From Balanoglossus misakiensis (lineage: Eukaryota > Animalia > Hemichordata), in the NCBI GenBank assembly GCA_040954595.2, contig JBECUI020000029.1, positions 124,001 through 188,000 of the forward strand: a DNA stretch of 64,000 nucleotides, written 5' to 3'. The notes beneath the pieces were generated by a model. That model was not told the DNA's origin, made no database searches, and saw only the letters and a program-made list of their open reading frames with translations. Position numbers and translations under genes: made by a program. Shown here piece by piece: positions 13,601 through 51,160 of the stretch. Every line of letters starts with the position of its first letter. Within the stretch, counting starts at the first letter, position 1.

Positions 13601-16103
13601 ATTAATTGTGTACATGCACTAAAGCGCCCTCACTGCTGGGTGTGTTGTATGGTCTTTAACCCTGTTTCAAATTAGAGTACTTTCTGCAATTTCAAGACAG
13701 ATCTTACGTGCCATTGGAGAGCTCCATTGACTGGTCATTCATACTGTTTTCATTCATTCATTGCGGCATCAATATATTTTATCTATTCTAGCCAAAGAGC
13801 TTGGCACCTGTTGAAATGAACTCATCTGCTGTGGGCCAGTTTATTGGTGGCAGTTGAGCTGAGGAGAGCACCTTCCTTCCCGGCACGCCACCAAGTAAAG
13901 TTCCACGCCGCCCACCACAGATGCCAGCATTCATTCATGCGAGTGAGTGTAATTGCAAATTTGCCTATTCTAGATCTGTAATGGAAATGGAGAAAGTACC
14001 TTATATTTTCTGTAAAATAGACATTTAATTGGCAAGCCGTCCTGCATCAATTATTAATTGTGTACATGCACTAAAGCGCCCTCACTGCTGGGTGTGTTGT
14101 ATGGTCTTTAACCCTGTTTCAAATTAGAGTACTTTCTGCAATTTCAAGACAGATCTTACGTGCCATTGGAGAGCTCCATTGACTGGTCATTCATACTGTT
14201 TTCATTCATTCATTGCGGCATCAATATATTTTATCTATTCTAGCCAAAGAGCTTGGCACCTGTTGAAATGAACTCATCTGCTGTGGGCCAGTTTATTGGT
14301 GGCAGTTGAGCTGAGGAGAGCACCTTCCTTCCCGGCACGCCACCAAGTAAAGTTCCACGCCGCCCACCACAGATGCCAGCATTCATTCATGCGAGTGAGT
14401 GTAATTGCAAATTTGCCTATTCTAGATCTGTAATGGAAATGGAGAAAGTACCTTATATTTTCTGTAAAATAGACATTTAATTGGCAAGCCGTCCTGCATC
14501 AATTATTAATTGTGTACATGCACTAAAGCGCCCTCACTGCTGGGTGTGTTGTATGGTCTTTAACCCTGTTTCAAATTAGAGTACTTTCTGCAATTTCAAG
14601 ACAGATCTTACGTGCCATTGGAGAGCTCCATTGACTGGTCATTCATACTGTTTTCATTCATTCATTGCGGCATCAATATATTTTATCTATTCTAGCCAAA
14701 GAGCTTGGCACCTGTTGAAATGAACTCATCTGCTGTGGGCCAGTTTATTGGTGGCAGTTGAGCTGAGGAGAGCACCTTCCTTCCCGGCACGCCACCAAGT
14801 AAAGTTCCACGCCGCCCACCACAGATGCCAGCATTCATTCATGCGAGTGAGTGTAATTGCAAATTTGCCTATTCTAGATCTGTAATGGAAATGGAGAAAG
14901 TACCTTATATTTTCTGTAAAATAGACATTTAATTGGCAAGCCGTCCTGCATCAATTATTAATTGTGTACATGCACTAAAGCGCCCTCACTGCTGGGTGTG
15001 TTGTATGGTCTTTAACCCTGTTTCAAATTAGAGTACTTTCTGCAATTTCAAGACAGATCTTACGTGCCATTGGAGAGCTCCATTGACTGGTCATTCATAC
15101 TGTTTTCATTCATTCATTGCGGCATCAATATATTTTATCTATTCTAGCCAAAGAGCTTGGCACCTGTTGAAATGAACTCATCTGCTGTGGGCCAGTTTAT
15201 TGGTGGCAGTTGAGCTGAGGAGAGCACCTTCCTTCCCGGCACGCCACCAAGTAAAGTTCCACGCCGCCCACCACAGATGCCAGCATTCATTCATGCGAGT
15301 GAGTGTAATTGCAAATTTGCCTATTCTAGATCTGTAATGGAAATGGAGAAAGTACCTTATATTTTCTGTAAAATAGACATTTAATTGGCAAGCCGTCCTG
15401 CATCAATTATTAATTGTGTACATGCACTAAAGCGCCCTCACTGCTGGGTGTGTTGTATGGTCTTTAACCCTGTTTCAAATTAGAGTACTTTCTGCAATTT
15501 CAAGACAGATCTTACGTGCCATTGGAGAGCTCCATTGACTGGTCATTCATACTGTTTTCATTCATTCATTGCGGCATCAATATATTTTATCTATTCTAGC
15601 CAAAGAGCTTGGCACCTGTTGAAATGAACTCATCTGCTGTGGGCCAGTTTATTGGTGGCAGTTGAGCTGAGGAGAGCACCTTCCTTCCCGGCACGCCACC
15701 AAGTAAAGTTCCACGCCGCCCACCACAGATGCCAGCATTCATTCATGCGAGTGAGTGTAATTGCAAATTTGCCTATTCTAGATCTGTAATGGAAATGGAG
15801 AAAGTACCTTATATTTTCTGTAAAATAGACATTTAATTGGCAAGCCGTCCTGCATCAATTATTAATTGTGTACATGCACTAAAGCGCCCTCACTGCTGGG
15901 TGTGTTGTATGGTCTTTAACCCTGTTTCAAATTAGAGTACTTTCTGCAATTTCAAGACAGATCTTACGTGCCATTGGAGAGCTCCATTGACTGGTCATTC
16001 ATACTGTTTTCATTCATTCATTGCGGCATCAATATATTTTATCTATTCTAGCCAAAGAGCTTGGCACCTGTTGAAATGAACTCATCTGCTGTGGGCCAGT
16101 TTA
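1618..16103. repeat. Two copies of a 7243-bp higher-order repeat (20 monomers)
   Basis: Variant monomers recur at 1618, 8861, 16104. Order: 265,452,275,452,274,265,452,274,274,274,274,452,274,274, then 6x452, summing to 7243. The same period holds at 33730 to 40973. Confidence 0.97.
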
Positions 16104-16870
16104 TTGGTGGCAGTTGAGCTGAGGAGAGCACCTTCTTTCCCGGCACGCCACCAAGTAAAGTTCCACGCCGCCCACCACAGATGCCAGCATTCATTCATGC
16201 GAGTGAGTGTAATTGCAAATTTGCCTATTTACGTGCCATTGGAGAGCTCCATTGACTGGTCATTCATACTGTTTTCATTCATTCATTGCGGCATCAATAT
16301 ATTTTATCTATTCTAGCCAAAGAGCTTGGCACCTGTTGAAATGAACTCATCTGCTGTGGGCCAGTTTATTGGTGGCAGTTGAGCTGAGGAGAGCACCTTC
16401 CTTCCCGGCACGCCACCAAGTAAAGTTCCACGCCGCCCACCACAGATGCCAGCATTCATTCATGCGAGTGAGTGTAATTGCAAATTTGCCTATTCTAGAT
16501 CTGTAATGGAAATGGAGAAAGTACCTTATATTTTCTGTAAAATAGACATTTAATTGGCAAGCCGTCCTGCATCAATTATTAATTGTGTACATGCACTAAA
16601 GCGCCCTCACTGCTGGGTGTGTTGTATGGTCTTTAACCCTGTTTCAAATTAGAGTACTTTCTGCAATTTCAAGACAGATCTTACGTGCCATTGGAGAGCT
16701 CCATTGACTGGTCATTCATACTGTTTTCATTCATTCATTGCGGCATCAATATATTTTATCTATTCTAGCCAAAGAGCTTGGCACCTGTTGAAATGAACTC
16801 ATCTGCTGTGGGCCAGTTTATTGGTGGCAGTTGAGCTGAGGAGAGCACCTTCCTTCCCGGCACGCCACCA

Positions 16871-18677
16871 AGTAAAGTTCCACGTGCATTCCTGGCCCTG
16901 GTTTTATTTATGTTTACAGACAATATTGCATTTTTGTACAAGTATTTTAATCAACTATAAATTTTGAATGTGTCATTTACCTGAACCGGTCATGTTGACC
17001 AGAATGATACATTTCTGCCTTCACTCACCCTATAAATATGTGATTGAGACATAGGTCATTTGCATAAGCTAACATACCAGAAAGTAAGCATATCTGTTGT
17101 TTTCCCTGTGTCACTGCCATCAAAGTAAAAATTAGACGTTGTGTAGAGCAAACTCCAATTTTTTGTTCTCAATAAACATGGATGAATTACATAGAATGTG
17201 TTTGTTGTTTACAGTCTTTAAATGACACATTAGATTATGCACTTTACAAAACGTTTCTGAGAAACAAGTGACTAACTAGTTTCTTTCCACTGTGGCCAAC
17301 GTGGTTCACTGTTTGTGTCAGAATCTCTCTGTTTTGCAAGGATTTTGAAATCATAGTGGTGACATGCATAGTGAAAATCAGCTACTTTCAAATGTCCGTC
17401 ATGTTCATGCTGTAATTGAATTTTCAAAGCTGGGCTGGCGTGTTTTTTCTTATTTACATAAGTATCACACTTTATACATGTATCTTCATGGGGTTTTTTG
17501 AGTCCCGTATTTAGGTCCTCTCTCACAATTTTACGAAATATCGTATAACTGACAGTTGTTCTTCCCAGAAGAGATTGGTTGGTTATGAACTCTCGGTGTA
17601 ACTGCGATATACTGTGGGCCGGCGCCAGGTACGGTTTAAATCGAGGATTCCTGCAGTAGTGAGATTCTACAATTCTGTGCCTGCGTACGTGTTCAGTGAT
17701 ATCAGTCAGCAAATTTGGATTGAGTTTCCGACGATGCCCTTTGTGTCGGCCCCTTGCATCTGGCATCAGACCAGTAAAGTTCCATGTGCATTCCTGGCCC
17801 TGGTTTTATTTATGTTTACAGACAATATTGCATTTTTGTACAAGTATTTTAATCAACTATAAATTTTGAATGTGTCATTTACCTGAACCGGTCATGTTGA
17901 CCAGAATGATACATTTCTGCCTTCACTCACCCTATAAATATGTGATTGAGACATAGGTCATTTGCATAAGCTAACATACCAGAAAGTAAGCATATCTGAT
18001 GTTTTCCCTGTGTCACTGCCATCAAAGTAAAAATTAGACGTTGTGTAGAGCAAACTCCAATTTTTTGTTCTCAATAAACATGGATGAATTACATAGAATG
18101 TGTTTGTTGTTTACAGTCTTTAAATGACACATTAGATTATGCACTTTACAAAACGTTTCTGAGAAACAAGTGACTAACTAGTTTCTTTCCACTGTGGCCA
18201 ACGTGGTTCACTGTTTGTGTCAGAATCTCTCTGTTTTGCAAGGATTTTGAAATCATAGTGGTGACATGCATAGTGAAAATCAGCTACTTTCAAATGTCCG
18301 TCATGTTCATGCTGTAATTGAATTTTCAAAGCTGGGCTGGCGTGTTTTTTCTTATTTACATAAGTATCACACTTTATACATGTATCTTCATGGGGTTTTC
18401 TGAGTCCCGTATTTAGGTCCTCTCTCACAATTTTACGAAATATCGTATAACTGACAGTTGTTCTTCCCAGAAGAGATTGGTTGGTTATGAACTCTCGGTG
18501 TAACTGCGATATACTGTGGTCCGGTGCCAGGTACGGTTTAAATCGAGGATTCCTGCAGTAGTGAGATTCTACAATTCTGTGCCTGCGTACGTGTTCAGTG
18601 ATATCAGTCAGCAAATTTGGATTGAGTTTCCGACGATGCCCTTTGTGTCGGCCCCTTGCATCTGGCATCAGACCAGT
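16871..18677. repeat. 902-bp tandem duplication inside the cassette
   Basis: 16871-17775 matches 17773-18677 with a few substitutions. Junction has agt microhomology (gaccagt|aaagttcc vs gaccagt|tgaacag). Confidence 0.95.
17272..17775 (-). pseudogene. 5'-truncated duplicate of the transposase N-half gene (164-aa ORF from an internal Met)
   Basis: Matches the last 164 aa of the 18174-19136 ORF except two residues (D>A, R>K); created by the 902-bp duplication. Confidence 0.75.
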
Positions 18678-19130
18678 TGAACAGTGCATCATTTTGCTTA
18701 GAACGGTTCTAGTCCGCCTCTCACTAATGCCAAATAATTTCAGGAATGCATTTTTGCAGACAGTAACCGTTTCACCGCCTTCATTCACCAGGTGATAACG
18801 AACCGATTTCTTGTGTGACTTCATCTGCATATCCATCAGTTTGTAGAGCATCAAGTTCTGTTCATTATACACGCGACCATCAAAATATTTTCTCGTGGTG
18901 CCTAAAACATGCGTACTCCCAAGCTTCCGCATACAATTCCCTTGAACGCAGGCGCATTCCAAGGAAAGACTGTCAATATCTGGAAAAGGGCGATTTTTCC
19001 TTGGTTTTTGTCTCGGACACGTCTTTTTAGAATTCCTACGTGGCTTGTTGGCTCGAGCTGACAGTTCGGTTCTGCGTTGCTGCCACACAGGAATGGGTTC
19101 CCACGCATAAGCAACTCCCCGGCAGGCCAT
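18174..19130 (-). CDS. Sola1-like transposase, N-terminal half (putative DNA-binding/Zn region)
   Basis: Open ORF with first ATG at 19130. Motifs VCKNAFLKLFGIS, DARGRH, ESHYCR..YL, VSYTIFRKIV...KPHEDTCxxCD...HxxH resemble the N-terminal half of Sola1-type transposases. No catalytic motifs. Confidence 0.8.
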   Translation of the reverse strand: MACRGVAYAWEPIPVWQQRRTELSARANKPRRNSKKTCPRQKPRKNRPFPDIDSLSLECACVQGNCMRKLGSTHVLGTTRKYFDGRVYNEQNLMLYKLMDMQMKSHKKSVRYHLVNEGGETVTVCKNAFLKLFGISERRTRTVLSKMMHCSTGLMPDARGRHKGHRRKLNPNLLTDITEHVRRHRIVESHYCRNPRFKPYLAPDHSISQLHREFITNQSLLGRTTVSYTIFRKIVREDLNTGLRKPHEDTCIKCDTYVNKKKHASPALKIQLQHEHDGHLKVADFHYACHHYDFKILAKQRDSDTNSEPRWPQWKETS

Positions 19131-19177
19131 GGTCACAGCTGAAGTATTTGTTCAAGTACTGACTGACTAAACGCGGC

Positions 19178-20311
19178 ATGGAACAAACGAACGAACGACT
19201 TCACGTTCGGAAAAAAAATCGTTGCGAGCTGTTGGGTGCATGCCTCTATAGTTGTCGGCAACCGTTCTTTTTTATTGCTAAACAATGCTGTCAGAGCATG
19301 GAAGGTGTGGTGGAAAACGAACAGAGGTTTTGTACGACCAACGATTGGATGGTGCTACATATGGACTTCCACAAGTCATTGCCGGTTCCTAAACTCAGCT
19401 CTGAAGACTTTTACTTTAAATCGAAATTGCAAATGAAGCTCCTTGGAATTTACAACGGGACAACGGAAAAGATGCATTGTTATGTATGGACAGAGCTCGA
19501 TAGCAGAAAGTCTCCCGATGAAGTTATTACCTGTCTAAATCACTTTTTTTATAACTCGGGTGTGACCAGCAGACATGCAGTTATTTACAGCGACAACTGC
19601 CGTGCCGAATTCAAGTGTGGGAAGTTAATGTTTTACTATGACTATCTGTTACGAAAGGGCGTGTTTCGACGAATTGACTATAAAACTCTTGTGGCTGGAC
19701 ACACGTACTCCACCTGTGACCGAGTTTTTGCGTCCATTGAAAGGCATGCAAGTCGTTTCCAGAGTATAGAGACACCTCACGATTGGACATCTGTGATTCG
19801 AGGATCTTCTCTGAATGGGAACATTGGAGTTACGGAGATGACTCACAGAGACTTTTTCAATTATTCTGATTTCCTGAAAAATGAGTACGTTGTGCGTTAT
19901 GCAGATACAAACAATGTAACTTTTTACTACCAAGCCATGCACTATTTTAATTTTGGAGAAGGAGAAAGGCTTGATACCGACGGCAACCTCAGAACATTTA
20001 GTCATGCAGATAAAGTTTGGGTGAGAACATCTCTAGATCCAAGCGAGACCCCGATTGTAGTCGACTTTAGAAAGAAGAAGCAGAACCGGCGTTTACAAGA
20101 TTGTACGCTGAACAAACTTTATCAGGAACGTCGACCACTGGCGAGCAAAGTTTGGCGGGATCTTCAGAGTTTAGCCAAAAATTACCTGTCTCCGGAGGCA
20201 ATAGAATTTTATAGGAATCTACCGCTTCAGGAGAGTAGTGGCACCTCTGCAGACCCGTACGCCTTTCATGATGATGACGACGACGATGATGATGATATGG
20301 GCGGTGGTTGA
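19178..20311 (+). CDS. Sola1-like transposase, catalytic DDD half
   Basis: 377-aa ORF (alternative start ATG 19298, agcATGG). Motifs DFHKSLPVP..FYFKSKL, CYVWTE..EVITCL, SDNC, GHTYSTCDRVFASIE; acidic tail. AATAAA overlaps the stop (20311-20316). Confidence 0.88.
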   Translation: MEQTNERLHVRKKNRCELLGACLYSCRQPFFFIAKQCCQSMEGVVENEQRFCTTNDWMVLHMDFHKSLPVPKLSSEDFYFKSKLQMKLLGIYNGTTEKMHCYVWTELDSRKSPDEVITCLNHFFYNSGVTSRHAVIYSDNCRAEFKCGKLMFYYDYLLRKGVFRRIDYKTLVAGHTYSTCDRVFASIERHASRFQSIETPHDWTSVIRGSSLNGNIGVTEMTHRDFFNYSDFLKNEYVVRYADTNNVTFYYQAMHYFNFGEGERLDTDGNLRTFSHADKVWVRTSLDPSETPIVVDFRKKKQNRRLQDCTLNKLYQERRPLASKVWRDLQSLAKNYLSPEAIEFYRNLPLQESSGTSADPYAFHDDDDDDDDDMGGG

Positions 20312-20472
20312 ATAAACTGTCCTTTTCATGACGACAGTGATTTTGGATATTTGATGTGCGTGCACAGTTTATATGTAATATTTTCACACGAACGAGTTTT
20401 GACTGAATTTGATTAAAGAATGTACTCGATAATTAACAAATGTGCTGAATCGTGGTTATTATGTTGTTAATT

Positions 20473-20512
20473 TTTGTTTGTTTGTTTGTTTGTTTGTTTG
20501 TTTGTTTGTTTG
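20473..20512. repeat. (TTTG)10 microsatellite
   Basis: Read directly; same tract at 52503-52542. Confidence 0.95.
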
Positions 20513-20645
20513 TAAACAATTTCCGTTCATTCAACTGGCTACAAAGTTGGATTTTTGTACTGGGAAGCGATAAACTCGCACATCAAAACCGGGGAGACTC
20601 GATCATTTTTCCCTGCAGGTAGCCTGAAAAGCACCCGGGCAGAGA

Positions 20646-20718
20646 TTACGTCATATATGGTCCACTTTAATACGAAATTATGCAAATGTGACATTTCACG
20701 GAAACGGCGTATATAAAA
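20646..20718 (+). promoter_or_regulatory. Putative Pol II promoter of the wH-SET gene
   Basis: CRE-like TTACGTCA (20646), octamer ATGCAAAT (20680), TATAAAA (20712), about 100 bp upstream of ATG 20811. Confidence 0.55.
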
Positions 20719-20810
20719 GCGACCCTGGGCTATTGTTCGGAATGCGTCATCGACGAGAGAGTGACTGATAATTCTTCTACCTCGAGTCAACCATTCTGTA
20801 TATACTGAAC

Positions 20811-22148
20811 ATGGCTAGCTGGCGCAGGAAGAGACAAGGCAATGTGCGGTCTGTAATCAACGAACGGCACCGCTCAGTTCAGTGTCCCTTTCTTCAAAAG
20901 TGGATCGGTGAGCAATTGGTATTTTCAGGTCGTTCAGAGGATGAAGTCCAGTCCAGTACTGTATTTGAGAGCTACAAATGTTGGGTTGAAAACTATTCGT
21001 CGGCGGACAATCAAGTAATGATTATGGTTACTAAAGCTCGATTTTTCAAGGTGAGAATGATCGCATTTTTCTTTCCCCCCCCCCCCCTCCCTCCCTCCCT
21101 CCCCCAAGGGACTCGTTTTCTGTCTCTTTTAAACCTGTAACTTAACGAAAAGGAAGTTTTTCACATATCTCTTCGTTGACACTATAGCAATTTGGAGCGC
21201 GGATGCTTCAAGAGAAGAGCGTTACCAAATCAAAGTCGGCCGGGGTTAATATTTATAGAGGTGTTCGTCTGAAAGCTGGTTCGCGAAGAATCTCAACGGG
21301 GAAACCTGAGCACAGTGTACTTCAGACCAGGGCAAGGGCATTTCTTGATGACGCCAGCGTGACCGTTCCGATCGAGGTAAGAATGGTGTTTTGTTTGGAC
21401 TAGGACAATAGAACGTTGCAATGAGTGTGTCAATGGGTGTCCAAGTGCAAACGTGGTCTGCTTCTGTCCACAAATGCCATTAATTTTTGGCAGGATTTAT
21501 AAAATTGTCAATGAAGAATACAAAAATGAAAAACAACAGTTAATAGCAAACTGGTAGGATTGCAAGGGCTTGTAAAACGGTACACACTGTACCAGGAAGT
21601 TTGCAACACTAATGAAGAATGTATATGATATATTTAGGTGAGAACTGTTCGCGATCGCCGGGACGCAGGACGGTGCGCGTTTTCGACGAGGGATATTCAA
21701 GCCTGGGACGTCGTCTGCGAATACCGGGGCACGGTTATTAGCGTTGAAGAAGCTAGTCGGCGTGATGAGCTTTACAGGGCAGAGGGGAAACGACCACGCA
21801 TGTTCCATCTCTACATTGGAAAGAGACACGTTGTGTGAGTGTATCACTTAGTCGAATATATGGTCATATATTGCAAAGCATCTGTCGAAATAGAAAACGT
21901 AATATTGTCTATATTTTCCTCATTAACGCAGCATTGACGGATACGATGTCCCAGCCGGTGAAGAAAATTTAGCAGGCCTAATAAATCACAGTCAGCAGAA
22001 CGCCAACTTGGTACCGGTTCGGATCGGAGAGCGCCTGGTTTTCTTTGCAACCAGGAATCTTTGTCAGGGAGTAGAGCTTTTGTATGATTACGGTGACGGG
22101 GGTGAAGAGGATTTCTTCAGTGGTTCTCAAACTTTTCCTGAAAATTAA
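20811..22148 (+). CDS. Spliced gene (~280 aa): winged-helix-like domain + SETD8/PR-Set7-like SET lysine methyltransferase
   Basis: Exons 20811-21050, 21188-21376, 21638-21834, 21932-22148 with GT-AG introns joining in frame (phases 0,0,2). SET motifs GRCAFSTRDI..VCEYRG, IDG..NLAGLINHS..N, ELLYDYGD. N-terminal WIGEQL..SSTVFESYKCW..FFKQF..YRGVRLK resembles RFX/D5-C winged helices. Confidence 0.85.
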
Positions 22149-23051
22149 GGCATTAACACATCAACGCTTCGGGGTGTCGTAACGGCGGCGCGGCGGGGGG
22201 GGGGGGGACGTGAAAATGTTTGTATCAGGAACAAAATTCCCGTGCAAATCACCTTGATCCGGGTGGGTGGACTATTCGCGACAAATGTTGAAATCATACA
22301 AAGCATTTTACTTAATTAACCCATTTTTTTCATTTATTTGTTTACAGTTTACAACGTCATAGAGAAGTTGAACTAGAGACTGGATCAGCGTGGGTGACAC
22401 CATAGTACACCAATGTTTTCTTCAGTTTGATTCAATTGTAATTTAAAACTGAGATTGCCTAACGCTTTCCCAGATTTTTTTAACCACTGAGAAACTGTGG
22501 GTTTTTTTCTGGGTTTTGGTGCGAGGTGATCTCAGTCAGTGGTGTTAATTTAATTAATCATTTTCTTTTCCTATTTACGTCGACTGAAATGTATTTTGAT
22601 AGGTGATAGTCATACCATAAAAAAAATCTTACGGCGCGACTGCCAAAATGTACATTTATTTGTCCGTTCCAAGTTATTTTGTGTATGTGTGATGGGTGCC
22701 GGTGACTGTGCAGGGTTGATTTCCCTAGAGCGACTGTTATATTCGTTTTCCAACGATGATGAATTTACATGTTATTTGCTTGGCATTTTGACGCAGAGAC
22801 ACTTCTGAAAACACAAACCTATTAATTATGCCACGGGTGTAAATTGATCACATTAAAAGAGGCTTTAGACGTTTGCCGCGAGCTCCTGGTGGGCAGAATC
22901 TTGTCAGCCCAAATTTGACTATAAGTACATAGCCAATGATGTGACGCTCTCCCACATCCTTCGCCGCGCCTTTTCGCTGATTTACAGCATCTTGCGTAAA
23001 CACTGTCATTTGATCTTGCTTGGCAGAAGTCAACTTGCTCTATACTACATT

Positions 23052-23417
23052 ATGGCGGCCAAGCTCAACTGCATATCAGATAATGCCAAGGAGCGTTTGA
23101 GAGGCATCCTCGCCAGAAGGAGTCGCGTTTCCGGTGACTGTGTGCTCTGGACGGGTGCAGCTTGTCGAAACGGCTATGGCTCTATTACGTTCAGAGATGA
23201 GAACACTCTAACCGCCTATGTCCATCACATTGCACTCCTAATTAACGGAGTGCAATTGGTGGGCAGGCGGTTAGAGTGTTCTCATCTTTGCAACGAAAAG
23301 CTATGCATCCGCCCAGAGCACATTGTCCAGGAAACGCGACTCCTAAACATTTCACGAAAGACGTGCTTTAAATCCCCAAAAGGGGAGTGTCACCACGATC
23401 CCAGGTGCCTAAGGTGA
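23052..23417 (+). CDS. His-Cys box / His-Me finger endonuclease (I-PpoI-like), ~121 aa
   Basis: CVLWTG..NGYG..YVHH..ECSHLCNEKLCIRPEHIVQE...NISRKTC..CHHDPRC matches the zinc-binding His-Cys box pattern. ATG 23052; CCAAT upstream near 22933. A gtgagt overlaps the stop, so a small terminal intron is possible. Confidence 0.85.
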   Translation: MAAKLNCISDNAKERLRGILARRSRVSGDCVLWTGAACRNGYGSITFRDENTLTAYVHHIALLINGVQLVGRRLECSHLCNEKLCIRPEHIVQETRLLNISRKTCFKSPKGECHHDPRCLR

Positions 23418-24395
23418 GTAATCCTCTTCTCATTTGATATGTATTGTGTGACCCTGCAGTTGAAACGCTTTCATCAATAATTTGCGGCGCGTGGGTAATC
23501 TCGGTGTTATTGACAATGCAGCCGGCCCAAACATTTTTAAATTAACACTGTTTCTGACTGTATTAACGAAATGTCCAATTTGCAAGTAGCCTATAGACAA
23601 CCCTTTTGAATGAGTTTTGTCTCGTTGAGATTTTATACATAAGGAACAATCTAGATTTATTTTAGAAGACACTGTTCTTTTAAAACAGCTAGCATAATAC
23701 AGCTAAATTTCGGAATTTCCGGACAATTTTCGGAATTCCTTTTAAATTTGAGAAATTTTTCATCAGATATAAGTGTTACTATTTATTGGACATGTTTTTA
23801 TCATTGTTTACTTTTTAAGGTCATTCTCACCCCCCCCCCCCCCAAAAAAAGCCGCTTTAGGCTTCATGTTCAGTAAAAAATCTGGAAAGTTCAGCTGAAT
23901 TTTACACTGATCACACATTTTTGGGAAGGTCTGGCGCAAAATAAAGGATGACAAATGTAAATCTAATGTCACATTTGTAAACCTCTAAGTATTGTACACT
24001 CATTCTATTAAGTATATGCAAATAGTACGGATAATTTTTTCGGAATGTGGAATTCCGAAATTAGTTCGGAACGTGTTAGCAGTGAAGAGATCACCACTGA
24101 GGGTTGGAAGGCCTTGCCAGAAATTAACGCGTAAAGTACGCCCTCACAGGCCATGTAAACAAGGTCAAATAAGGCCGTCTGGCAAACGAATGATTAATTC
24201 AACGCGCCATTTGAGCCGAGCTGAGTTGGTCTGAGTTGCGTATCACACAGACTTAGGCTGAATGTCAGTGGAGTAACCAGTCCGTTTTAGATTTACCAAT
24301 GATGTGAATTTAATTTCTTCACCCAGAAAAACAGAACACAACTTGTCTGCAACATGATGCTGGAGGTGACACATGACAGAGAAGTGGATCCGCGT

Positions 24396-24730
24396 TGTCA
24401 ACACAGATGCCAGCATTCAAAAGGGGAGTGCCACCTGCTAAAATCAACTCATCTGCTGTTGGCCCATTTTACCTGTGGCAACTGTTCAGAGGAGACAACG
24501 TTTATTCCGTGCAAGCCAACACGCAATGTTGGGGTCTACCTGTCAACACAGATGCAAGCATTCATGTGAGTGAGTATCAGGACTGACCTTGTATTTGCTG
24601 AATAATTCATAATGCCTATTTTAGAATTCTTAGAGGCATTTGGAGTTCATTGCCTGGTCAACCAAACTACACCCCTTAACAGCTGAAACAAAATGCGTAT
24701 TGTGTTCATTCATTCATTGCATCAATATAT
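24396..24730. repeat. Diverged relic of the satellite monomer inside the cassette
   Basis: Colinear matches: acagatgccagcattca, cacctgctaaaatcaactcatctgctgttggcc, gtgagtgagt, tgcctattttagaattctta, ttcattcattcattgcatcaatatat. Confidence 0.85.
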
Positions 24731-25037
24731 ATAGGCAACATGAGTATCAAGTAGCACTATTTGTTTACGATTGTATTCATGAAAACTTCCCACTAACAAT
24801 TCCACAGTTAATATTGAACACATTTATCCAACAAGGTCAAAAGAAAAAGGGAATCTTCTGGTTCCAAAATACGCCACAAATGTGGGTCAACATACAGTGA
24901 AATATTATGGTGCTCAAATATGCAACATATCAAATCTGTCTCATCAAAGTCATGCTTTAAAAAAGAATTGAAAAGGTATTATTTATCCATTTGACTGCTG
25001 TATTTTCAGAAGGAAAACAAACTGAATTTGGTTTTTC

Positions 25038-28000
25038 AAGTACCTTATATTTTCTGTAAAATAGACATTTAATTGGCAAGCCGTCCTGCATCAATTATTA
25101 ATTGTGTACATGCACTAAAGCGCCCTCACTGCTGGGTGTGTTGTATGGTCTTTAACCCTGTTTCAAATTAGAGTACTTTCTGCAATTTCAAGACAGATCT
25201 TACGTGCCATTGGAGAGCTCCATTGACTGGTCATTCATACTGTTTTCATTCATTCATTGCGGCATCAATATATTTTATCTATTCTAGCCAAAGAGCTTGG
25301 CACCTGTTGAAATGAACTCATCTGCTGTGGGCCAGTTTATTGGTGGCAGTTGAGCTGAGGAGAGCACCTTCCTTCCCGGCACGCCACCAAGTAAAGTTCC
25401 ACGCCGCCCACCACAGATGCCAGCATTCATTCATGCGAGTGAGTGTAATTGCAAATTTGCCTATTCTAGATCTGTAATGGAAATGGAGAAAGTACCTTAT
25501 ATTTTCTGTAAAATAGACATTTAATTGGCAAGCCGTCCTGCATCAATTATTAATTGTGTACATGCACTAAAGCGCCCTCACTGCTGGGTGTGTTGTATGG
25601 TCTTTAACCCTGTTTCAAATTAGAGTACTTTCTGCAATTTCAAGACAGATCTTACGTGCCATTGGAGAGCTCCATTGACTGGTCATTCATACTGTTTTCA
25701 TTCATTCATTGCGGCATCAATATATTTTATCTATTCTAGCCAAAGAGCTTGGCACCTGTTGAAATGAACTCATCTGCTGTGGGCCAGTTTATTGGTGGCA
25801 GTTGAGCTGAGGAGAGCACCTTCCTTCCCGGCACGCCACCAAGTAAAGTTCCACGCCGCCCACCACAGATGCCAGCATTCATTCATGCGAGTGAGTGTAA
25901 TTGCAAATTTGCCTATTCTAGATCTGTAATGGAAATGGAGAAAGTACCTTATATTTTCTGTAAAATAGACATTTAATTGGCAAGCCGTCCTGCATCAATT
26001 ATTAATTGTGTACATGCACTAAAGCGCCCTCACTGCTGGGTGTGTTGTATGGTCTTTAACCCTGTTTCAAATTAGAGTACTTTCTGCAATTTCAAGACAG
26101 ATCTTACGTGCCATTGGAGAGCTCCATTGACTGGTCATTCATACTGTTTTCATTCATTCATTGCGGCATCAATATATTTTATCTATTCTAGCCAAAGAGC
26201 TTGGCACCTGTTGAAATGAACTCATCTGCTGTGGGCCAGTTTATTGGTGGCAGTTGAGCTGAGGAGAGCACCTTCCTTCCCGGCACGCCACCAAGTAAAG
26301 TTCCACGCCGCCCACCACAGATGCCAGCATTCATTCATGCGAGTGAGTGTAATTGCAAATTTGCCTATTCTAGATCTGTAATGGAAATGGAGAAAGTACC
26401 TTATATTTTCTGTAAAATAGACATTTAATTGGCAAGCCGTCCTGCATCAATTATTAATTGTGTACATGCACTAAAGCGCCCTCACTGCTGGGTGTGTTGT
26501 ATGGTCTTTAACCCTGTTTCAAATTAGAGTACTTTCTGCAATTTCAAGACAGATCTTACGTGCCATTGGAGAGCTCCATTGACTGGTCATTCATACTGTT
26601 TTCATTCATTCATTGCGGCATCAATATATTTTATCTATTCTAGCCAAAGAGCTTGGCACCTGTTGAAATGAACTCATCTGCTGTGGGCCAGTTTATTGGT
26701 GGCAGTTGAGCTGAGGAGAGCACCTTCCTTCCCGGCACGCCACCAAGTAAAGTTCCACGCCGCCCACCACAGATGCCAGCATTCATTCATGCGAGTGAGT
26801 GTAATTGCAAATTTGCCTATTCTAGATCTGTAATGGAAATGGAGAAAGTACCTTATATTTTCTGTAAAATAGACATTTAATTGGCAAGCCGTCCTGCATC
26901 AATTATTAATTGTGTACATGCACTAAAGCGCCCTCACTGCTGGGTGTGTTGTATGGTCTTTAACCCTGTTTCAAATTAGAGTACTTTCTGCAATTTCAAG
27001 ACAGATCTTACGTGCCATTGGAGAGCTCCATTGACTGGTCATTCATACTGTTTTCATTCATTCATTGCGGCATCAATATATTTTATCTATTCTAGCCAAA
27101 GAGCTTGGCACCTGTTGAAATGAACTCATCTGCTGTGGGCCAGTTTATTGGTGGCAGTTGAGCTGAGGAGAGCACCTTCTTTCCCGGCACGCCACCAAGT
27201 AAAGTTCCACGCCGCCCACCACAGATGCCAGCATTCATTCATGCGAGTGAGTGTAATTGCAAATTTGCCTATTTACGTGCCATTGGAGAGCTCCATTGAC
27301 TGGTCATTCATACTGTTTTCATTCATTCATTGCGGCATCAATATATTTTATCTATTCTAGCCAAAGAGCTTGGCACCTGTTGAAATGAACTCATCTGCTG
27401 TGGGCCAGTTTATTGGTGGCAGTTGAGCTGAGGAGAGCACCTTCCTTCCCGGCACGCCACCAAGTAAAGTTCCACGCCGCCCACCACAGATGCCAGCATT
27501 CATTCATGCGAGTGAGTGTAATTGCAAATTTGCCTATTCTAGATCTGTAATGGAAATGGAGAAAGTACCTTATATTTTCTGTAAAATAGACATTTAATTG
27601 GCAAGCCGTCCTGCATCAATTATTAATTGTGTACATGCACTAAAGCGCCCTCACTGCTGGGTGTGTTGTATGGTCTTTAACCCTGTTTCAAATTAGAGTA
27701 CTTTCTGCAATTTCAAGACAGATCTTACGTGCCATTGGAGAGCTCCATTGACTGGTCATTCATACTGTTTTCATTCATTCATTGCGGCATCAATATATTT
27801 TATCTATTCTAGCCAAAGAGCTTGGCACCTGTTGAAATGAACTCATCTGCTGTGGGCCAGTTTATTGGTGGCAGTTGAGCTGAGGAGAGCACCTTCCTTC
27901 CCGGCACGCCACCAAGTAAAGTTCCACGCCGCCCACCACAGATGCCAGCATTCATTCATGCGAGTGAGTGTAATTGCAAATTTGCCTATTCTAGAATTCT

Positions 28001-31000: not shown

Positions 31001-34000
31001 TTGGAGAGCTCCATTGACTGGTCATTCATACTGTTTTCATTCATTCATTGCGGCATCAATATATTTTATCTATTCTAGCCAAAGAGCTTGGCACCTGTTG
31101 AAATGAACTCATCTGCTGTGGGCCAGTTTATTGGTGGCAGTTGAGCTGAGGAGAGCACCTTCTTTCCCGGCACGCCACCAAGTAAAGTTCCACGCCGCCC
31201 ACCACAGATGCCAGCATTCATTCATGCGAGTGAGTGTAATTGCAAATTTGCCTATTCTAGAATCTTACGTGCCATTGGAGAGCTCCATTGACTGGTCATT
31301 CATACTGTTTTCATTCATTCATTGCGGCATCAATATATTTTATCTATTCTAGCCAAAGAGCTTGGCACCTGTTGAAATGAACTCATCTGCTGTGGGCCAG
31401 TTTATTGGTGGCAGTTGAGCTGAGGAGAGCACCTTCTTTCCCGGCACGCCACCAAGTAAAGTTCCACGCCGCCCACCACAGATGCCAGCATTCATTCATG
31501 CGAGTGAGTGTAATTGCAAATTTGCCTATTTACGTGCCATTGGAGAGCTCCATTGACTGGTCATTCATACTGTTTTCATTCATTCATTGCGGCATCAATA
31601 TATTTTATCTATTCTAGCCAAAGAGCTTGGCACCTGTTGAAATGAACTCATCTGCTGTGGGCCAGTTTATTGGTGGCAGTTGAGCTGAGGAGAGCACCTT
31701 CCTTCCCGGCACGCCACCAAGTAAAGTTCCACGCCGCCCACCACAGATGCCAGCATTCATTCATGCGAGTGAGTGTAATTGCAAATTTGCCTATTCTAGA
31801 ATCTTACGTGCCATTGGAGAGCTCCATTGACTGGTCATTCATACTGTTTTCATTCATTCATTGCGGCATCAATATATTTTATCTATTCTAGCCGAAGAGC
31901 TTGGCACCTGTTGAAATGAACTCATCTGCTGTGGGCCAGTTTATTGGTGGCAGTTGAGCTGAGGAGAGCACCTTCCTTCCCGGCACGCCACCAAGTAAAG
32001 TTCCACGCCGCCCACCACAGATGCCAGCATTCATTCATGCGAGTGAGTGTAATTGCAAATTTGCCTATTCTAGATCTGTAATGGAAATGGAGAAAGTACC
32101 TTATATTTTCTGTAAAATAGACATTTAATTGGCAAGCCGTCCTGCATCAATTATTAATTGTGTACATGCACTAAAGCGCCCTCACTGCTGGGTGTGTTGT
32201 ATGGTCTTTAACCCTGTTTCAAATTAGAGTACTTTCTGCAATTTCAAGACAGATCTTACGTGCCATTGGAGAGCTCCATTGACTGGTCATTCATACTGTT
32301 TTCATTCATTCATTGCGGCATCAATATATTTTATCTATTCTAGCCAAAGAGCTTGGCACCTGTTGAAATGAACTCATCTGCTGTGGGCCAGTTTATTGGT
32401 GGCAGTTGAGCTGAGGAGAGCACCTTCCTTCCCGGCACGCCACCAAGTAAAGTTCCACGCCGCCCACCACAGATGCCAGCATTCATTCATGCGAGTGAGT
32501 GTAATTGCAAATTTGCCTATTCTAGATCTGTAATGGAAATGGAGAAAGTACCTTATATTTTCTGTAAAATAGACATTTAATTGGCAAGCCGTCCTGCATC
32601 AATTATTAATTGTGTACATGCACTAAAGCGCCCTCACTGCTGGGTGTGTTGTATGGTCTTTAACCCTGTTTCAAATTAGAGTACTTTCTGCAATTTCAAG
32701 ACAGATCTTACGTGCCATTGGAGAGCTCCATTGACTGGTCATTCATACTGTTTTCATTCATTCATTGCGGCATCAATATATTTTATCTATTCTAGCCAAA
32801 GAGCTTGGCACCTGTTGAAATGAACTCATCTGCTGTGGGCCAGTTTATTGGTGGCAGTTGAGCTGAGGAGAGCACCTTCTTTCCCGGCACGCCACCAAGT
32901 AAAGTTCCACGCCGCCCACCACAGATGCCAGCATTCATTCATGCGAGTGAGTGTAATTGCAAATTTGCCTATTCTAGATCTGTAATGGAAATGGAGAAAG
33001 TACCTTATATTTTCTGTAAAATAGACATTTAATTGGCAAGCCGTCCTGCATCAATTATTAATTGTGTACATGCACTAAAGCGCCCTCACTGCTGGGTGTG
33101 TTGTATGGTCTTTAACCCTGTTTCAAATTAGAGTACTTTCTGCAATTTCAAGACAGATCTTACGTGCCATTGGAGAGCTCCATTGACTGGTCATTCATAC
33201 TGTTTTCATTCATTCATTGCGGCATCAATATATTTTATCTATTCTAGCCAAAGAGCTTGGCACCTGTTGAAATGAACTCATCTGCTGTGGGCCAGTTTAT
33301 TGGTGGCAGTTGAGCTGAGGAGAGCACCTTCCTTCCCGGCACGCCACCAAGTAAAGTTCCACGCCGCCCACCACAGATGCCAGCATTCATTCATGCGAGT
33401 GAGTGTAATTGCAAATTTGCCTATTCTAGATCTGTAATGGAAATGGAGAAAGTACCTTATATTTTCTGTAAAATAGACATTTAATTGGCAAGCCGTCCTG
33501 CATCAATTATTAATTGTGTACATGCACTAAAGCGCCCTCACTGCTGGGTGTGTTGTATGGTCTTTAACCCTGTTTCAAATTAGAGTACTTTCTGCAATTT
33601 CAAGACAGATCTTACGTGCCATTGGAGAGCTCCATTGACTGGTCATTCATACTGTTTTCATTCATTCATTGCGGCATCAATATATTTTATCTATTCTAGC
33701 CAAAGAGCTTGGCACCTGTTGAAATGAACTCATCTGCTGTGGGCCAGTTTATTGGTGGCAGTTGAGCTGAGGAGAGCACCTTCCTTCCCGGCACGCCACC
33801 AAGTAAAGTTCCACGCCGCCCACCACAGATGCCAGCATTCATTCATGCGAGTGAGTGTAATTGCAAATTTGCCTATTCTAGAATTCTTACGTGCCATTGG
33901 AGAGCTCCATTGACTGGTCATTCATACTGTTTTCATTCATTCATTGCGGCATCAATATATTTTATCTATTCTAGCCAAAGAGCTTGGCACCTGTTGAAAT

Positions 34001-37000
34001 GAACTCATCTGCTGTGGGCCAGTTTATTGGTGGCAGTTGAGCTGAGGAGAGCACCTTCCTTCCCGGCACGCCACCAAGTAAAGTTCCACGCCGCCCACCA
34101 CAGATGCCAGCATTCATTCATGCGAGTGAGTGTAATTGCAAATTTGCCTATTCTAGATCTGTAATGGAAATGGAGAAAGTACCTTATATTTTCTGTAAAA
34201 TAGACATTTAATTGGCAAGCCGTCCTGCATCAATTATTAATTGTGTACATGCACTAAAGCGCCCTCACTGCTGGGTGTGTTGTATGGTCTTTAACCCTGT
34301 TTCAAATTAGAGTACTTTCTGCAATTTCAAGACAGATCTTACGTGCCATTGGAGAGCTCCATTGACTGGTCATTCATACTGTTTTCATTCATTCATTGCG
34401 GCATCAATATATTTTATCTATTCTAGCCAAAGAGCTTGGCACCTGTTGAAATGAACTCATCTGCTGTGGGCCAGTTTATTGGTGGCAGTTGAGCTGAGGA
34501 GAGCACCTTCTTTCCCGGCACGCCACCAAGTAAAGTTCCACGCCGCCCACCACAGATGCCAGCATTCATTCATGCGAGTGAGTGTAATTGCAAATTTGCC
34601 TATTCTAGAATCTTACGTGCCATTGGAGAGCTCCATTGACTGGTCATTCATACTGTTTTCATTCATTCATTGCGGCATCAATATATTTTATCTATTCTAG
34701 CCAAAGAGCTTGGCACCTGTTGAAATGAACTCATCTGCTGTGGGCCAGTTTATTGGTGGCAGTTGAGCTGAGGAGAGCACCTTCTTTCCCGGCACGCCAC
34801 CAAGTAAAGTTCCACGCCGCCCACCACAGATGCCAGCATTCATTCATGCGAGTGAGTGTAATTGCAAATTTGCCTATTTACGTGCCATTGGAGAGCTCCA
34901 TTGACTGGTCATTCATACTGTTTTCATTCATTCATTGCGGCATCAATATATTTTATCTATTCTAGCCAAAGAGCTTGGCACCTGTTGAAATGAACTCATC
35001 TGCTGTGGGCCAGTTTATTGGTGGCAGTTGAGCTGAGGAGAGCACCTTCCTTCCCGGCACGCCACCAAGTAAAGTTCCACGCCGCCCACCACAGATGCCA
35101 GCATTCATTCATGCGAGTGAGTGTAATTGCAAATTTGCCTATTCTAGATCTGTAATGGAAATGGAGAAAGTACCTTATATTTTCTGTAAAATAGACATTT
35201 AATTGGCAAGCCGTCCTGCATCAATTATTAATTGTGTACATGCACTAAAGCGCCCTCACTGCTGGGTGTGTTGTATGGTCTTTAACCCTGTTTCAAATTA
35301 GAGTACTTTCTGCAATTTCAAGACAGATCTTACGTGCCATTGGAGAGCTCCATTGACTGGTCATTCATACTGTTTTCATTCATTCATTGCGGCATCAATA
35401 TATTTTATCTATTCTAGCCAAAGAGCTTGGCACCTGTTGAAATGAACTCATCTGCTGTGGGCCAGTTTATTGGTGGCAGTTGAGCTGAGGAGAGCACCTT
35501 CTTTCCCGGCACGCCACCAAGTAAAGTTCCACGCCGCCCACCACAGATGCCAGCATTCATTCATGCGAGTGAGTGTAATTGCAAATTTGCCTATTCTAGA
35601 ATCTTACGTGCCATTGGAGAGCTCCATTGACTGGTCATTCATACTGTTTTCATTTATTCATTGCGGCATCAATATATTTTATCTATTCTAGCCAAAGAGC
35701 TTGGCACCTGTTGAAATGAACTCATCTGCTGTGGGCCAGTTTATTGGTGGCAGTTGAGCTGAGGAGAGCACCTTCTTTCCCGGCACGCCACCAAGTAAAG
35801 TTCCACGCCGCCCACCACAGATGCCAGCATTCATTCATGCGAGTGAGTGTAATTGCAAATTTGCCTATTCTAGAATCTTACGTGCCATTGGAGAGCTCCA
35901 TTGACTGGTCATTCATACTGTTTTCATTCATTCATTGCAGCATCAATATATTTTATCTATTCTAGCCAAAGAGCTTGGCACCTGTTGAAATGAACTCATC
36001 TGCTGTGGGCCAGTTTATTGGTGGCAGTTGAGCTGAGGAGAGCACCTTCCTTCCCGGCACGCCACCAAGTAAAGTTCCACGCCGCCCACCACAGATGCCA
36101 GCATTCATTCATGCGAGTGAGTGTAATTGCAAATTTGCCTATTCTAGAATCTTACGTGCCATTGGAGAGCTCCATTGACTGGTCATTCATACTGTTTTCA
36201 TTCATTCATTGCGGCATCAATATATTTTATCTATTCTAGCCAAAGAGCTTGGCACCTGTTGAAATGAACTCATCTGCTGTGGGCCAGTTTATTGGTGGCA
36301 GTTGAGCTGAGGAGAGCACCTTCCTTCCCGGCACGCCACCAAGTAAAGTTCCACGCCGCCCACCACAGATGCCAGCATTCATTCATGCGAGTGAGTGTAA
36401 TTGCAAATTTGCCTATTCTAGAATCTTACGTGCCATTGGAGAGCTCCATTGACTGGTCATTCATACTGTTTTCATTCATTCATTGCGGCATCAATATATT
36501 TTATCTATTCTAGCCGAAGAGCTTGGCACCTGTTGAAATGAACTCATCTGCTGTGGGCCAGTTTATTGGTGGCAGTTGAGCTGAGGAGAGCACCTTCCTT
36601 CCCGGCACGCCACCAAGTAAAGTTCCACGCCGCCCACCACAGATGCCAGCATTCATTCATGCGAGTGAGTGTAATTGCAAATTTGCCTATTCTAGATCTG
36701 TAATGGAAATGGAGAAAGTACCTTATATTTTCTGTAAAATAGACATTTAATTGGCAAGCCGTCCTGCATCAATTATTAATTGTGTACATGCACTAAAGCG
36801 CCCTCACTGCTGGGTGTGTTGTATGGTCTTTAACCCTGTTTCAAATTAGAGTACTTTCTGCAATTTCAAGACAGATCTTACGTGCCATTGGAGAGCTCCA
36901 TTGACTGGTCATTCATACTGTTTTCATTCATTCATTGCGGCATCAATATATTTTATCTATTCTAGCCAAAGAGCTTGGCACCTGTTGAAATGAACTCATC

Positions 37001-40000
37001 TGCTGTGGGCCAGTTTATTGGTGGCAGTTGAGCTGAGGAGAGCACCTTCCTTCCCGGCACGCCACCAAGTAAAGTTCCACGCCGCCCACCACAGATGCCA
37101 GCATTCATTCATGCGAGTGAGTGTAATTGCAAATTTGCCTATTCTAGATTCTTACGTGCCATTGGAGAGCTCCATTGACTGGTCATTCATACTGTTTTCA
37201 TTCATTCATTGCGGCATCAATATATTTTATCTATTCTAGCCAAAGAGCTTGGCACCTGTTGAAATGAACTCATCTGCTGTGGGCCAGTTTATTGGTGGCA
37301 GTTGAGCTGAGGAGAGCACCTTCCTTCCCGGCACGCCACCAAGTAAAGTTCCACGCCGCCCACCACAGATGCCAGCATTCATTCATGCGAGTGAGTGTAA
37401 TTGCAAATTTGCCTATTCTAGAATCTTACGTGCCATTGGAGAGCTCCATTGACTGGTCATTCATACTGTTTTCATTCATTCATTGCGGCATCAATATATT
37501 TTATCTATTCTAGCCAAAGAGCTTGGCACCTGTTGAAATGAACTCATCTGCTGTGGGCCAGTTTATTGGTGGCAGTTGAGCTGAGGAGAGCACCTTCCTT
37601 CCCGGCACGCCACCAAGTAAAGTTCCACGCCGCCCACCACAGATGCCAGCATTCATTCATGCGAGTGAGTGTAATTGCAAATTTGCCTATTCTAGATCTG
37701 TAATGGAAATGGAGAAAGTACCTTATATTTTCTGTAAAATAGACATTTAATTGGCAAGCCGTCCTGCATCAATTATTAATTGTGTACATGCACTAAAGCG
37801 CCCTCACTGCTGGGTGTGTTGTATGGTCTTTAACCCTGTTTCAAATTAGAGTACTTTCTGCAATTTCAAGACAGATCTTACGTGCCATTGGAGAGCTCCA
37901 TTGACTGGTCATTCATACTGTTTTCATTCATTCATTGCGGCATCAATATATTTTATCTATTCTAGCCAAAGAGCTTGGCACCTGTTGAAATGAACTCATC
38001 TGCTGTGGGCCAGTTTATTGGTGGCAGTTGAGCTGAGGAGAGCACCTTCCTTCCCGGCACGCCACCAAGTAAAGTTCCACGCCGCCCACCACAGATGCCA
38101 GCATTCATTCATGCGAGTGAGTGTAATTGCAAATTTGCCTATTCTAGATCTGTAATGGAAATGGAGAAAGTACCTTATATTTTCTGTAAAATAGACATTT
38201 AATTGGCAAGCCGTCCTGCATCAATTATTAATTGTGTACATGCACTAAAGCGCCCTCACTGCTGGGTGTGTTGTATGGTCTTTAACCCTGTTTCAAATTA
38301 GAGTACTTTCTGCAATTTCAAGACAGATCTTACGTGCCATTGGAGAGCTCCATTGACTGGTCATTCATACTGTTTTCATTCATTCATTGCGGCATCAATA
38401 TATTTTATCTATTCTAGCCAAAGAGCTTGGCACCTGTTGAAATGAACTCATCTGCTGTGGGCCAGTTTATTGGTGGCAGTTGAGCTGAGGAGAGCACCTT
38501 CCTTCCCGGCACGCCACCAAGTAAAGTTCCACGCCGCCCACCACAGATGCCAGCATTCATTCATGCGAGTGAGTGTAATTGCAAATTTGCCTATTCTAGA
38601 TCTGTAATGGAAATGGAGAAAGTACCTTATATTTTCTGTAAAATAGACATTTAATTGGCAAGCCGTCCTGCATCAATTATTAATTGTGTACATGCACTAA
38701 AGCGCCCTCACTGCTGGGTGTGTTGTATGGTCTTTAACCCTGTTTCAAATTAGAGTACTTTCTGCAATTTCAAGACAGATCTTACGTGCCATTGGAGAGC
38801 TCCATTGACTGGTCATTCATACTGTTTTCATTCATTCATTGCGGCATCAATATATTTTATCTATTCTAGCCAAAGAGCTTGGCACCTGTTGAAATGAACT
38901 CATCTGCTGTGGGCCAGTTTATTGGTGGCAGTTGAGCTGAGGAGAGCACCTTCCTTCCCGGCACGCCACCAAGTAAAGTTCCACGCCGCCCACCACAGAT
39001 GCCAGCATTCATTCATGCGAGTGAGTGTAATTGCAAATTTGCCTATTCTAGATCTGTAATGGAAATGGAGAAAGTACCTTATATTTTCTGTAAAATAGAC
39101 ATTTAATTGGCAAGCCGTCCTGCATCAATTATTAATTGTGTACATGCACTAAAGCGCCCTCACTGCTGGGTGTGTTGTATGGTCTTTAACCCTGTTTCAA
39201 ATTAGAGTACTTTCTGCAATTTCAAGACAGATCTTACGTGCCATTGGAGAGCTCCATTGACTGGTCATTCATACTGTTTTCATTCATTCATTGCGGCATC
39301 AATATATTTTATCTATTCTAGCCAAAGAGCTTGGCACCTGTTGAAATGAACTCATCTGCTGTGGGCCAGTTTATTGGTGGCAGTTGAGCTGAGGAGAGCA
39401 CCTTCCTTCCCGGCACGCCACCAAGTAAAGTTCCACGCCGCCCACCACAGATGCCAGCATTCATTCATGCGAGTGAGTGTAATTGCAAATTTGCCTATTC
39501 TAGATCTGTAATGGAAATGGAGAAAGTACCTTATATTTTCTGTAAAATAGACATTTAATTGGCAAGCCGTCCTGCATCAATTATTAATTGTGTACATGCA
39601 CTAAAGCGCCCTCACTGCTGGGTGTGTTGTATGGTCTTTAACCCTGTTTCAAATTAGAGTACTTTCTGCAATTTCAAGACAGATCTTACGTGCCATTGGA
39701 GAGCTCCATTGACTGGTCATTCATACTGTTTTCATTCATTCATTGCGGCATCAATATATTTTATCTATTCTAGCCAAAGAGCTTGGCACCTGTTGAAATG
39801 AACTCATCTGCTGTGGGCCAGTTTATTGGTGGCAGTTGAGCTGAGGAGAGCACCTTCCTTCCCGGCACGCCACCAAGTAAAGTTCCACGCCGCCCACCAC
39901 AGATGCCAGCATTCATTCATGCGAGTGAGTGTAATTGCAAATTTGCCTATTCTAGATCTGTAATGGAAATGGAGAAAGTACCTTATATTTTCTGTAAAAT

Positions 40001-50707: not shown

Positions 50708-51160
50708 TGAACAGTGCATCATTTTGCTTAGAACGGTTCTAGTCCGCCTCTCACTAATGCCAAATAATTTCAGGAATGCATTTTTGCAGACAGTAACCGT
50801 TTCACCGCCTTCATTCACCAGGTGATAACGAACCGATTTCTTGTGTGACTTCATCTGCATATCCATCAGTTTGTAGAGCATCAAGTTCTGTTCATTATAC
50901 ACGCGACCATCAAAATATTTTCTCGTGGTGCCTAAAACATGCGTACTCCCAAGCTTCCGCAGACAATTCCCTTGAACGCAGGCGCATTCCAAGGAAAGAC
51001 TGTCAATATCTGGAAAAGGGCGATTTTTCCTTGGTTTTTGTCTCGGACACGTCTTTTTAGAATTCCTACGTGGCTTGTTGGCTCGAGCTGACAGTTCGGT
51101 TCTGCGTTGCTGCCACACAGGAATGGGTTCCCACGCATAAGCAACTCCCCGGCAGGCCAT
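50204..51160 (-). CDS. Sola1-like transposase, N-terminal half (copy 2)
   Basis: Identical protein to copy 1 except M>L (GNCMRK vs GNCLRK). Confidence 0.8.
   Translation of the reverse strand: MACRGVAYAWEPIPVWQQRRTELSARANKPRRNSKKTCPRQKPRKNRPFPDIDSLSLECACVQGNCLRKLGSTHVLGTTRKYFDGRVYNEQNLMLYKLMDMQMKSHKKSVRYHLVNEGGETVTVCKNAFLKLFGISERRTRTVLSKMMHCSTGLMPDARGRHKGHRRKLNPNLLTDITEHVRRHRIVESHYCRNPRFKPYLAPDHSISQLHREFITNQSLLGRTTVSYTIFRKIVREDLNTGLRKPHEDTCIKCDTYVNKKKHASPALKIQLQHEHDGHLKVADFHYACHHYDFKILAKQRDSDTNSEPRWPQWKETS

Follow-up and report, generated by a model that had tools for sequence, protein, structure and literature searches.

A palindrome within the coding sequence of a predicted His-Cys box nuclease, carried by a transposon-like cassette embedded in satellite DNA

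The window analyzed here, by which we mean the whole 64-kb stretch of DNA, contains two copies of a multi-gene cassette embedded in a satellite array. The first copy (16885-25037, 8153 bp) is flanked by positions 366 and 1 of the satellite monomer, and the second (48915-57072) is 99.9% identical to it and has the same junctions. Each cassette carries, in order, a minus-strand Cys/His-rich ORF, a DUF7869 ORF placed head-to-head with it, a SET gene and a small nuclease gene. The nuclease had been described in the initial annotation as free-standing; instead, its gene belongs to a cassette that also contains the transposase and SET genes. At the left end, a tandem duplication of about 900 bp (16871-18677, with units at 16871-17775 and 17773-18677) repeats the 3' portion of the minus-strand gene along with 14 bp of satellite, and diverged pieces of satellite monomer (about 71-72%) are located within the cassette at 24396-24730 on the plus strand. 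Element ends and target duplications of the cassette were sought, and none were found. A separate short element with 23-bp inverted arms occupies 23717-24071, downstream of the nuclease; its other copies have different flanks.

The ORF at 23052-23417 on the plus strand (121 aa), which recurs in identical form at 55088-55453 (+), is an intact predicted nuclease of the His-Cys box (His-Me finger) family, with an I-PpoI-like fold and its catalytic residues present. It matches the Pfam profile zf-His_Me_endon (PF05551) with 51.1 bits (E 2e-13; cut-off 27). The sequence match to I-PpoI is weak (E 0.002), and residues S77, H78, C80, C85, H90, E94, N99, C105, C113, H115 and C119 align to the catalytic and zinc residues of I-PpoI, for which the KolobokP report gives S97, H98, H110, E114 and N119 as catalytic together with eight zinc ligands (PMC9587614). 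The predicted model has a pLDDT of 94 and finds I-PpoI as its best Foldseek match (E 8e-4), with I-PpoI filling the top four rows at TM 0.43-0.57; additionally, C30 is invariant in all 19 alignment rows. With ORF, Pfam score and I-PpoI residues in agreement, the compact His-Cys motif and the I-PpoI-type family assignment made initially are sustained. So is the absence of an rDNA or group I intron context: no Rfam family reached its gathering score in the 64-kb window, none appeared at E ≤ 1 in 14000-28000, and ARAGORN detected no tRNA in the window. The nuclease stops at the position of I-PpoI residue 140 of 163, and the last 23 I-PpoI residues, a tail that we take to be part of the I-PpoI dimer, have no counterpart. 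A consensus splice donor encloses the stop codon of the nuclease (23414-23459) and is followed by an acceptor 46 nt on; splicing there would alter only the last residue.

Eighteen single-domain relatives of the nuclease, chosen among the 150 matches listed, are 30-38% identical to it and have 12 invariant columns in common; one cluster among the relatives contains UniRef entries bearing the name of this domain. A tree of 26 homologues, from which four further rows lacking the motif were left out, did not resolve the branching and included no named KolobokP or intron rows. Word-based protein searches returned no relatives of similar length for either the nuclease or the minus-strand ORF. Scans of viral contigs with the window nuclease, a 6-row alignment and the homologue P0031 yielded no nuclease relatives, and neither did a scan of prokaryote genomes; the scan with another homologous nuclease, P0130, led only to three phage HNH loci, two of which were folded as controls (z 0.1). 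Six short nuclease motifs sought in the supplements of the KolobokP paper occurred there 0 times (PMC9587614).

The DUF7869 ORF (19178-20311, +), which probably starts at its second Met (19298), appears to encode the catalytic half of a transposase with an RNase H/integrase-like fold. DUF7869 is the only Pfam match above cut-off for the transposase, and its low-confidence model (pLDDT 54) superimposes on a retroviral integrase with Z 10.1 and an rmsd of 3.2 over 128 aligned positions; three Asp residues are invariant in 4/4 rows, as in an RNase H core with an acidic triad. No Pfam match was obtained for the Cys/His-rich ORF on the opposite strand (18174-19136, -), which, from its arrangement, its homologue at another locus and its likeness to such proteins, probably encodes the transposase's N-terminal half. 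The split falls just before the first catalytic Asp and gives two head-to-head genes (18174-20311). In a scan of metagenome contigs for the transposase, four loci (L001-L004, 1.3-5.2 kb) were retained out of 287 candidates, and in L004 (197-1356) the transposase likewise has, head-to-head with it, an ORF homologous to the minus-strand one (E 2.6e-7). L001 (4326-5227), L002 and P0001-P0003 agree with the window in where the catalytic half begins, and one Saccoglossus model has 38 additional aa. Cnidarians, arthropods and molluscs have DUF7869 clusters of 306-334 aa, one cluster measures 717 aa, and no relatives of the transposase halves were found in viral contigs or prokaryote genomes. Two of the metagenome loci have inverted repeats of their own: in L002, the 33-bp transposase start region (192-224) is repeated in inverted orientation 1.5 kb downstream (1674-1706), and in L003, a 101-bp palindrome (74-174) lies upstream of the transposase gene.

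Between transposase and nuclease, a predicted four-exon gene with GT-AG introns (20811-22148, +; exons 20811-21050, 21188-21376, 21638-21834 and 21932-22148) encodes an unassigned N-terminal domain followed by a SET domain, whose closest named structures are SETD8/KMT5A. The N-terminal domain, which we label as presumably winged-helix, scored nothing above the Pfam cut-off and had no BLASTP match to the L001 frame. In L001, homologues of three SET-gene exons stand beside the transposase (1596-3569, -) in an orientation different from that in the window. Among the diverged SET-exon paralogues, 8 of the 12 changes listed are silent, which we count in favor of the reading preferred below, and one listed change is a stop unless an unlisted neighboring change accompanies it. 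The nuclease is present in none of the four loci L001-L004; a multi-gene element family with a split transposase and a SET gene thus exists, and the membership of the nuclease in it is seen in this genome only. The SET gene, travelling with the transposase, could mark the element's own chromatin.

The satellite array covers about 47 kb of the window and consists of 452-bp monomers (reference monomer 25490-25941, +) and variants of 265-275 bp, organized in a 7243-bp higher-order repeat. A hammerhead, spliced-leader or other RNA gene within the monomer was considered and dropped, as neither Rfam nor ARAGORN supported one. At 48363-48786, a 424-bp insertion, 396 positions of which are self-complementary, sits at a TA of one monomer. 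The monomer itself includes a MITE-like piece of 177 bp (25472-25648), with terminal inverted repeats (TIRs) of about 80% and AT on both sides. This piece is full at 71 sites and has been lost at 53 of 124, in four footprint classes (32, 5, 5 and 11), none of them precise. These two-ended losses of the TIR-bounded piece are the only scars in the array, and loss at both TIRs points to a transposase rather than to a single nuclease cut. We take the footprints to resemble hairpin-type excision, in the manner of Ac/Ds.

The initial annotation proposed that the nuclease cuts cassette-free monomers within a segment missing at the cassette site and thereby drives homing or homogenization of the array. 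Monomer positions 367-452 (86 bp) are indeed absent at both cassettes, and its observation of fixed junctions stands for the two copies in the window, which share both junctions and show no target duplication; these shared junctions, the intact catalytic residues and the near-identity of the monomers speak for such an activity. The segment 367-452, however, is exact in all 71 intact copies, and its first 62 bp (367-428) together with the left-junction site are exact in all 124; no repair scars or escape variants were found among these sites. Empty sites are thus neither depleted nor scarred, and about 60 monomer units per cassette are still empty (the window holds 62 units per cassette). Additionally, the two cassettes differ in their register within the 7243-bp repeat, and the higher-order register is lost across either. 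The palindromes that had been put forward as a special target do not single out the 86-bp segment: a 10-bp perfect palindrome of the gcaaatttgc type is found in 9% of 2000 simulated sequences of 86 bp, tctaga/agatct is one end of the MITE-like piece, and two further palindromes in the monomer lie outside the missing segment. The shortened C terminus, which lacks the presumed dimer tail, also argues against homing.

The cassette flanks bear on the same question. Two runs, X1 and X2, come from one sample, which may be the one that the window itself derives from. In their contigs, the left flank of the cassette is joined to diverged monomer-like DNA (24518 to 17774), 24730 is linked to 24432 in monomer order, and a diverged copy spans the left junction. 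The left junction therefore seems to be an old feature of the element itself and not a product of homing. Two X1 contigs leave the window six bases past the right junction (25038-25043), one of them at cassette-level depth, and an X2 contig bridges it. In X1, most of the cassette is covered at a depth of about 700-1000 and the satellite at 33,000-53,000, a ratio near 62, with depth not to be equated with copy number. With exact targets, differing registers and an apparently old left junction, we consider homing into cassette-free monomers highly improbable. We infer instead that the monomer repeat was an old spacer of the element family, from which, together with a MITE, the satellite would have grown; the satellite may have expanded from a transposon spacer while the MITE excised repeatedly.

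Comparison of the window with itself revealed the main feature, which the initial annotation had overlooked: the nuclease ORF matches its own reverse complement across 23118-23344. The resulting imperfect palindrome takes up 227 of the 366 coding bases, with 99 predicted pairs, 92 of them Watson-Crick. Its left arm (23118-23238, +) encodes R23-L62, including C30, W33, G35, Y42, G43 and H58; its right arm (23247-23344, +) encodes G66-L98, including S77, H78, C80, C85, H90 and E94; the predicted fold places an 8-nt loop between them (23239-23246, +). A long inverted repeat within an ORF, with conserved residues encoded on both arms, is what defines a coding palindrome. The ORF is predicted to fold as RNA into one long hairpin of -191.6 kcal/mol (z -14.7), which none of 100 dinucleotide shuffles equaled; against three synonymous recodings of the nuclease, z was -11.3, -12.4 and -13.7, and none of 120 sequences in each (0/360 in total) was as stable. 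In the tested 7.26-kb cassette, this palindrome is the sole inverted match at E<0.1, with 111 bits compared with 37 for the best of 30 simulated cassettes, and the cassette outside the nuclease gene folds normally, so that one gene of four is affected. Among the 40 variant rows listed out of 58, paralogue changes occur at 23344-23399 and none in 23118-23343. An assembly fold-back artefact can be dismissed, as the arms are imperfect and both in frame, the two copies are identical, and an X1 contig matches 23198-23453 without differences.

The internal structure of the palindrome is informative about its origin. Its perfect runs measure 15, 10, 23 and 10 bp and are in codon phases 3, 2, 1 and 1; bulges are present, and the innermost perfect stem spans 10 bp around the 8-nt loop. 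Stems in all three codon phases rule out a single inverted duplication as the origin. Among the 31 pairs that join two non-degenerate codon positions, 27 are Watson-Crick, which indicates that amino acids were reshaped. The conserved RRLECSHLC (0.57), which includes the catalytic SHLC, pairs with the variable FRDENTLTAY (0.11), and the conserved VHH (0.57) pairs with the variable LVG (0.13), H58 facing the variable loop; one stem, CVLWTGA opposite CIRPEHI, is conserved on both arms. The palindrome folds better as the sense than as the antisense strand (-153.5 vs. -139.3), and wobble-type mismatches lean towards the sense RNA (6 G.T, 1 A.C and 1 other; p 0.06, with the stems defined on the sense fold).

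A second palindrome of this type may exist in the same protein family. In a protein-only test of 108 homologous domains, one, that of P0130, was compatible with a 49-nt two-helix coding stem in a different register; 47 of the 49 pairs are feasible with exact codons, and none of 3000 shuffles did as well, which corresponds to about p 0.04 after 108 tests. The longest single stem of P0130, at 25 nt, does not exceed what shuffles give (maximum 30). The test has low power, as the window's own nuclease reached z 1.4-2.0 and ranked ninth.

Judged from its sequence, the palindrome looks like the outcome of segment-wise copying within limits set by the protein. In our preferred reading, to which we assign a probability of roughly 40%, a predicted His-Cys nuclease with a coding palindrome of about 100 bp would belong to a likely transposon, beside the split DUF7869 transposase and the SET gene, that was co-amplified with its own repeat, and the mRNA hairpin would damp nuclease expression. 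The palindrome may have been assembled piece by piece as template switches copied sequence between the two arms at places where the protein could bear the change, and it may have been retained because an mRNA for a genotoxic enzyme that contains a long duplex would be diced, edited or poorly translated, leaving only traces of the nuclease. Rare nuclease cuts could then stimulate both unequal crossover and the formation of multimers, an effect proposed, without experiment, for the KolobokP nuclease (PMC9587614; PMC13565253), and the cassettes would have been copied along with the array through unequal exchange. Work on phages favors restraint by an mRNA hairpin insofar as translation of phage homing endonucleases is limited by RNA hairpins; against it, the same source reports no nuclease-mediated effect on phage viability after deletion of the I-TevI hairpin (PMC2988022). 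Likewise, in the Nematomorpha study, perfect coding palindromes do not keep genes from being translated, and no difference in transcript levels was seen (PMC6649704). The proportion of Watson-Crick pairs is what DNA-level copying alone would yield, and this, together with the weakness of the G.T bias, also counts against hairpin restraint.

Copying alone is the basis of a close rival, which we nevertheless hold to be somewhat unlikely: repeated template switching would have perfected a chance inverted repeat, with selection on the protein only filtering the survivors and the hairpin having no role. The prevalence of Watson-Crick pairs and the perfect runs fit this neutral origin, which is also the preferred reading for Nematomorpha (PMC6649704), and in yeast genes template switching is described as altering neighboring codons without adaptation (PMC8604942). 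By contrast, the Nematomorpha have perfect repeats distributed among many genes, whereas here one gene of four is affected and the rest folds normally; the slight sense-strand wobble bias and the possible second case in P0130 also weigh against it. The palindrome could alternatively act as DNA, as a cruciform or fragile site or as the nuclease's own binding site, starting breaks and unequal exchange that multiply the cassette. Both DNA strands are predicted to fold stably (-88 and -83 kcal/mol), the cassettes occupy different registers of the higher-order repeat, and the KolobokP nuclease has been proposed to induce unequal crossover (PMC9587614). Nonetheless, the two nuclease copies are identical and free of break scars, the innermost perfect stem is merely 10 bp with its 8-nt loop, and an asymmetry towards the sense strand would not be expected; we regard such a role as improbable.

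Returning to the preferred reading of a hairpin that damps nuclease expression, we speculate further, and hold it unlikely as a whole, that a lineage of animal DNA transposons not described before, with a split DUF7869 transposase, a SETD8-like methyltransferase and a His-Cys nuclease, converged on the lifestyle of KolobokP and seeded its own satellite, and that its nuclease gene silences itself, having been rewritten as a hairpin RNA, a change that would have occurred repeatedly among these nucleases. The transposon is apparently undescribed, and the palindromic nuclease gene is the real surprise. In listings of the open literature, no coding palindrome in a His-Cys nuclease and no split-transposase element like this one were reported, and DUF7869 gave 0 matches. 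Long palindromes within working ORFs are rare, and the one strong precedent found is mitochondrial. The occurrence of one in the only genotoxic gene that a mobile element carries offers a clean test of whether such a palindrome is selected as a regulator or is a mutational by-product, and the element provides a second transposon system in which the KolobokP idea of a captured homing nuclease driving multimers can be tested.

Among known systems, I-PpoI and other His-Cys homing endonucleases share with the window nuclease the fold, the catalytic His/Asn and two zinc sites; I-PpoI, however, has 163 aa and an intron/rDNA setting, whereas the present enzyme has 121 aa, no C-terminal tail and no sign of a depleted target. 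Sola transposases presumably resemble this element in having three Asp in an RNase H core and a Cys/His-rich N-terminal region, but here the gene is split, nuclease and SET cargo are present, and no TIRs or 4-bp target duplication were found. In T-even phages, RNA structure in the messages of I-TevI and MobE can restrain translation, as predicted here, although those hairpins are short and cover the ribosome-binding site (PMC2988022), whereas ours, in a eukaryote, would be a 100-bp duplex formed by the coding sequence itself. The mitochondrial genes of Nematomorpha likewise have a long inverted repeat inside an ORF with both arms conserved; their arms are perfect (PMC6649704), whereas the palindrome described here is imperfect, runs in three phases and is confined to the nuclease gene of an intron-bearing, likely nuclear element.

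The KolobokP transposons, to which the initial annotation had rightly pointed, combine a DDD/E transposase with a small I-PpoI-like nuclease in marine invertebrates, and the motif pattern of our nuclease fits their published nuclease alignment; tandem multimers and the loss of TIR-bearing units with small footprints are further points of likeness (PMC9587614). Unlike KolobokP, the cassette has a DUF7869 transposase in two divergent genes, a distinction drawn from the Pfam matches, contains a SET gene and carries the nuclease on the strand of the catalytic half. KolobokP elements are described with LTDRs of 450/660 bp, TIRs of 11-18 bp and RR..YY ends, whereas the piece found here is 177 bp long, starts with CT and has AT flanks, and the 452-bp monomer agrees with the LTDR in number only; the main text of the KolobokP paper has 0 mentions of hairpin, satellite or SET domain (PMC9587614). 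The cassette is thus like KolobokP in its layout and unlike it in transposase and LTDR, and the mitochondrial palindromes of Nematomorpha and the KolobokP transposons together constitute the closest precedents.
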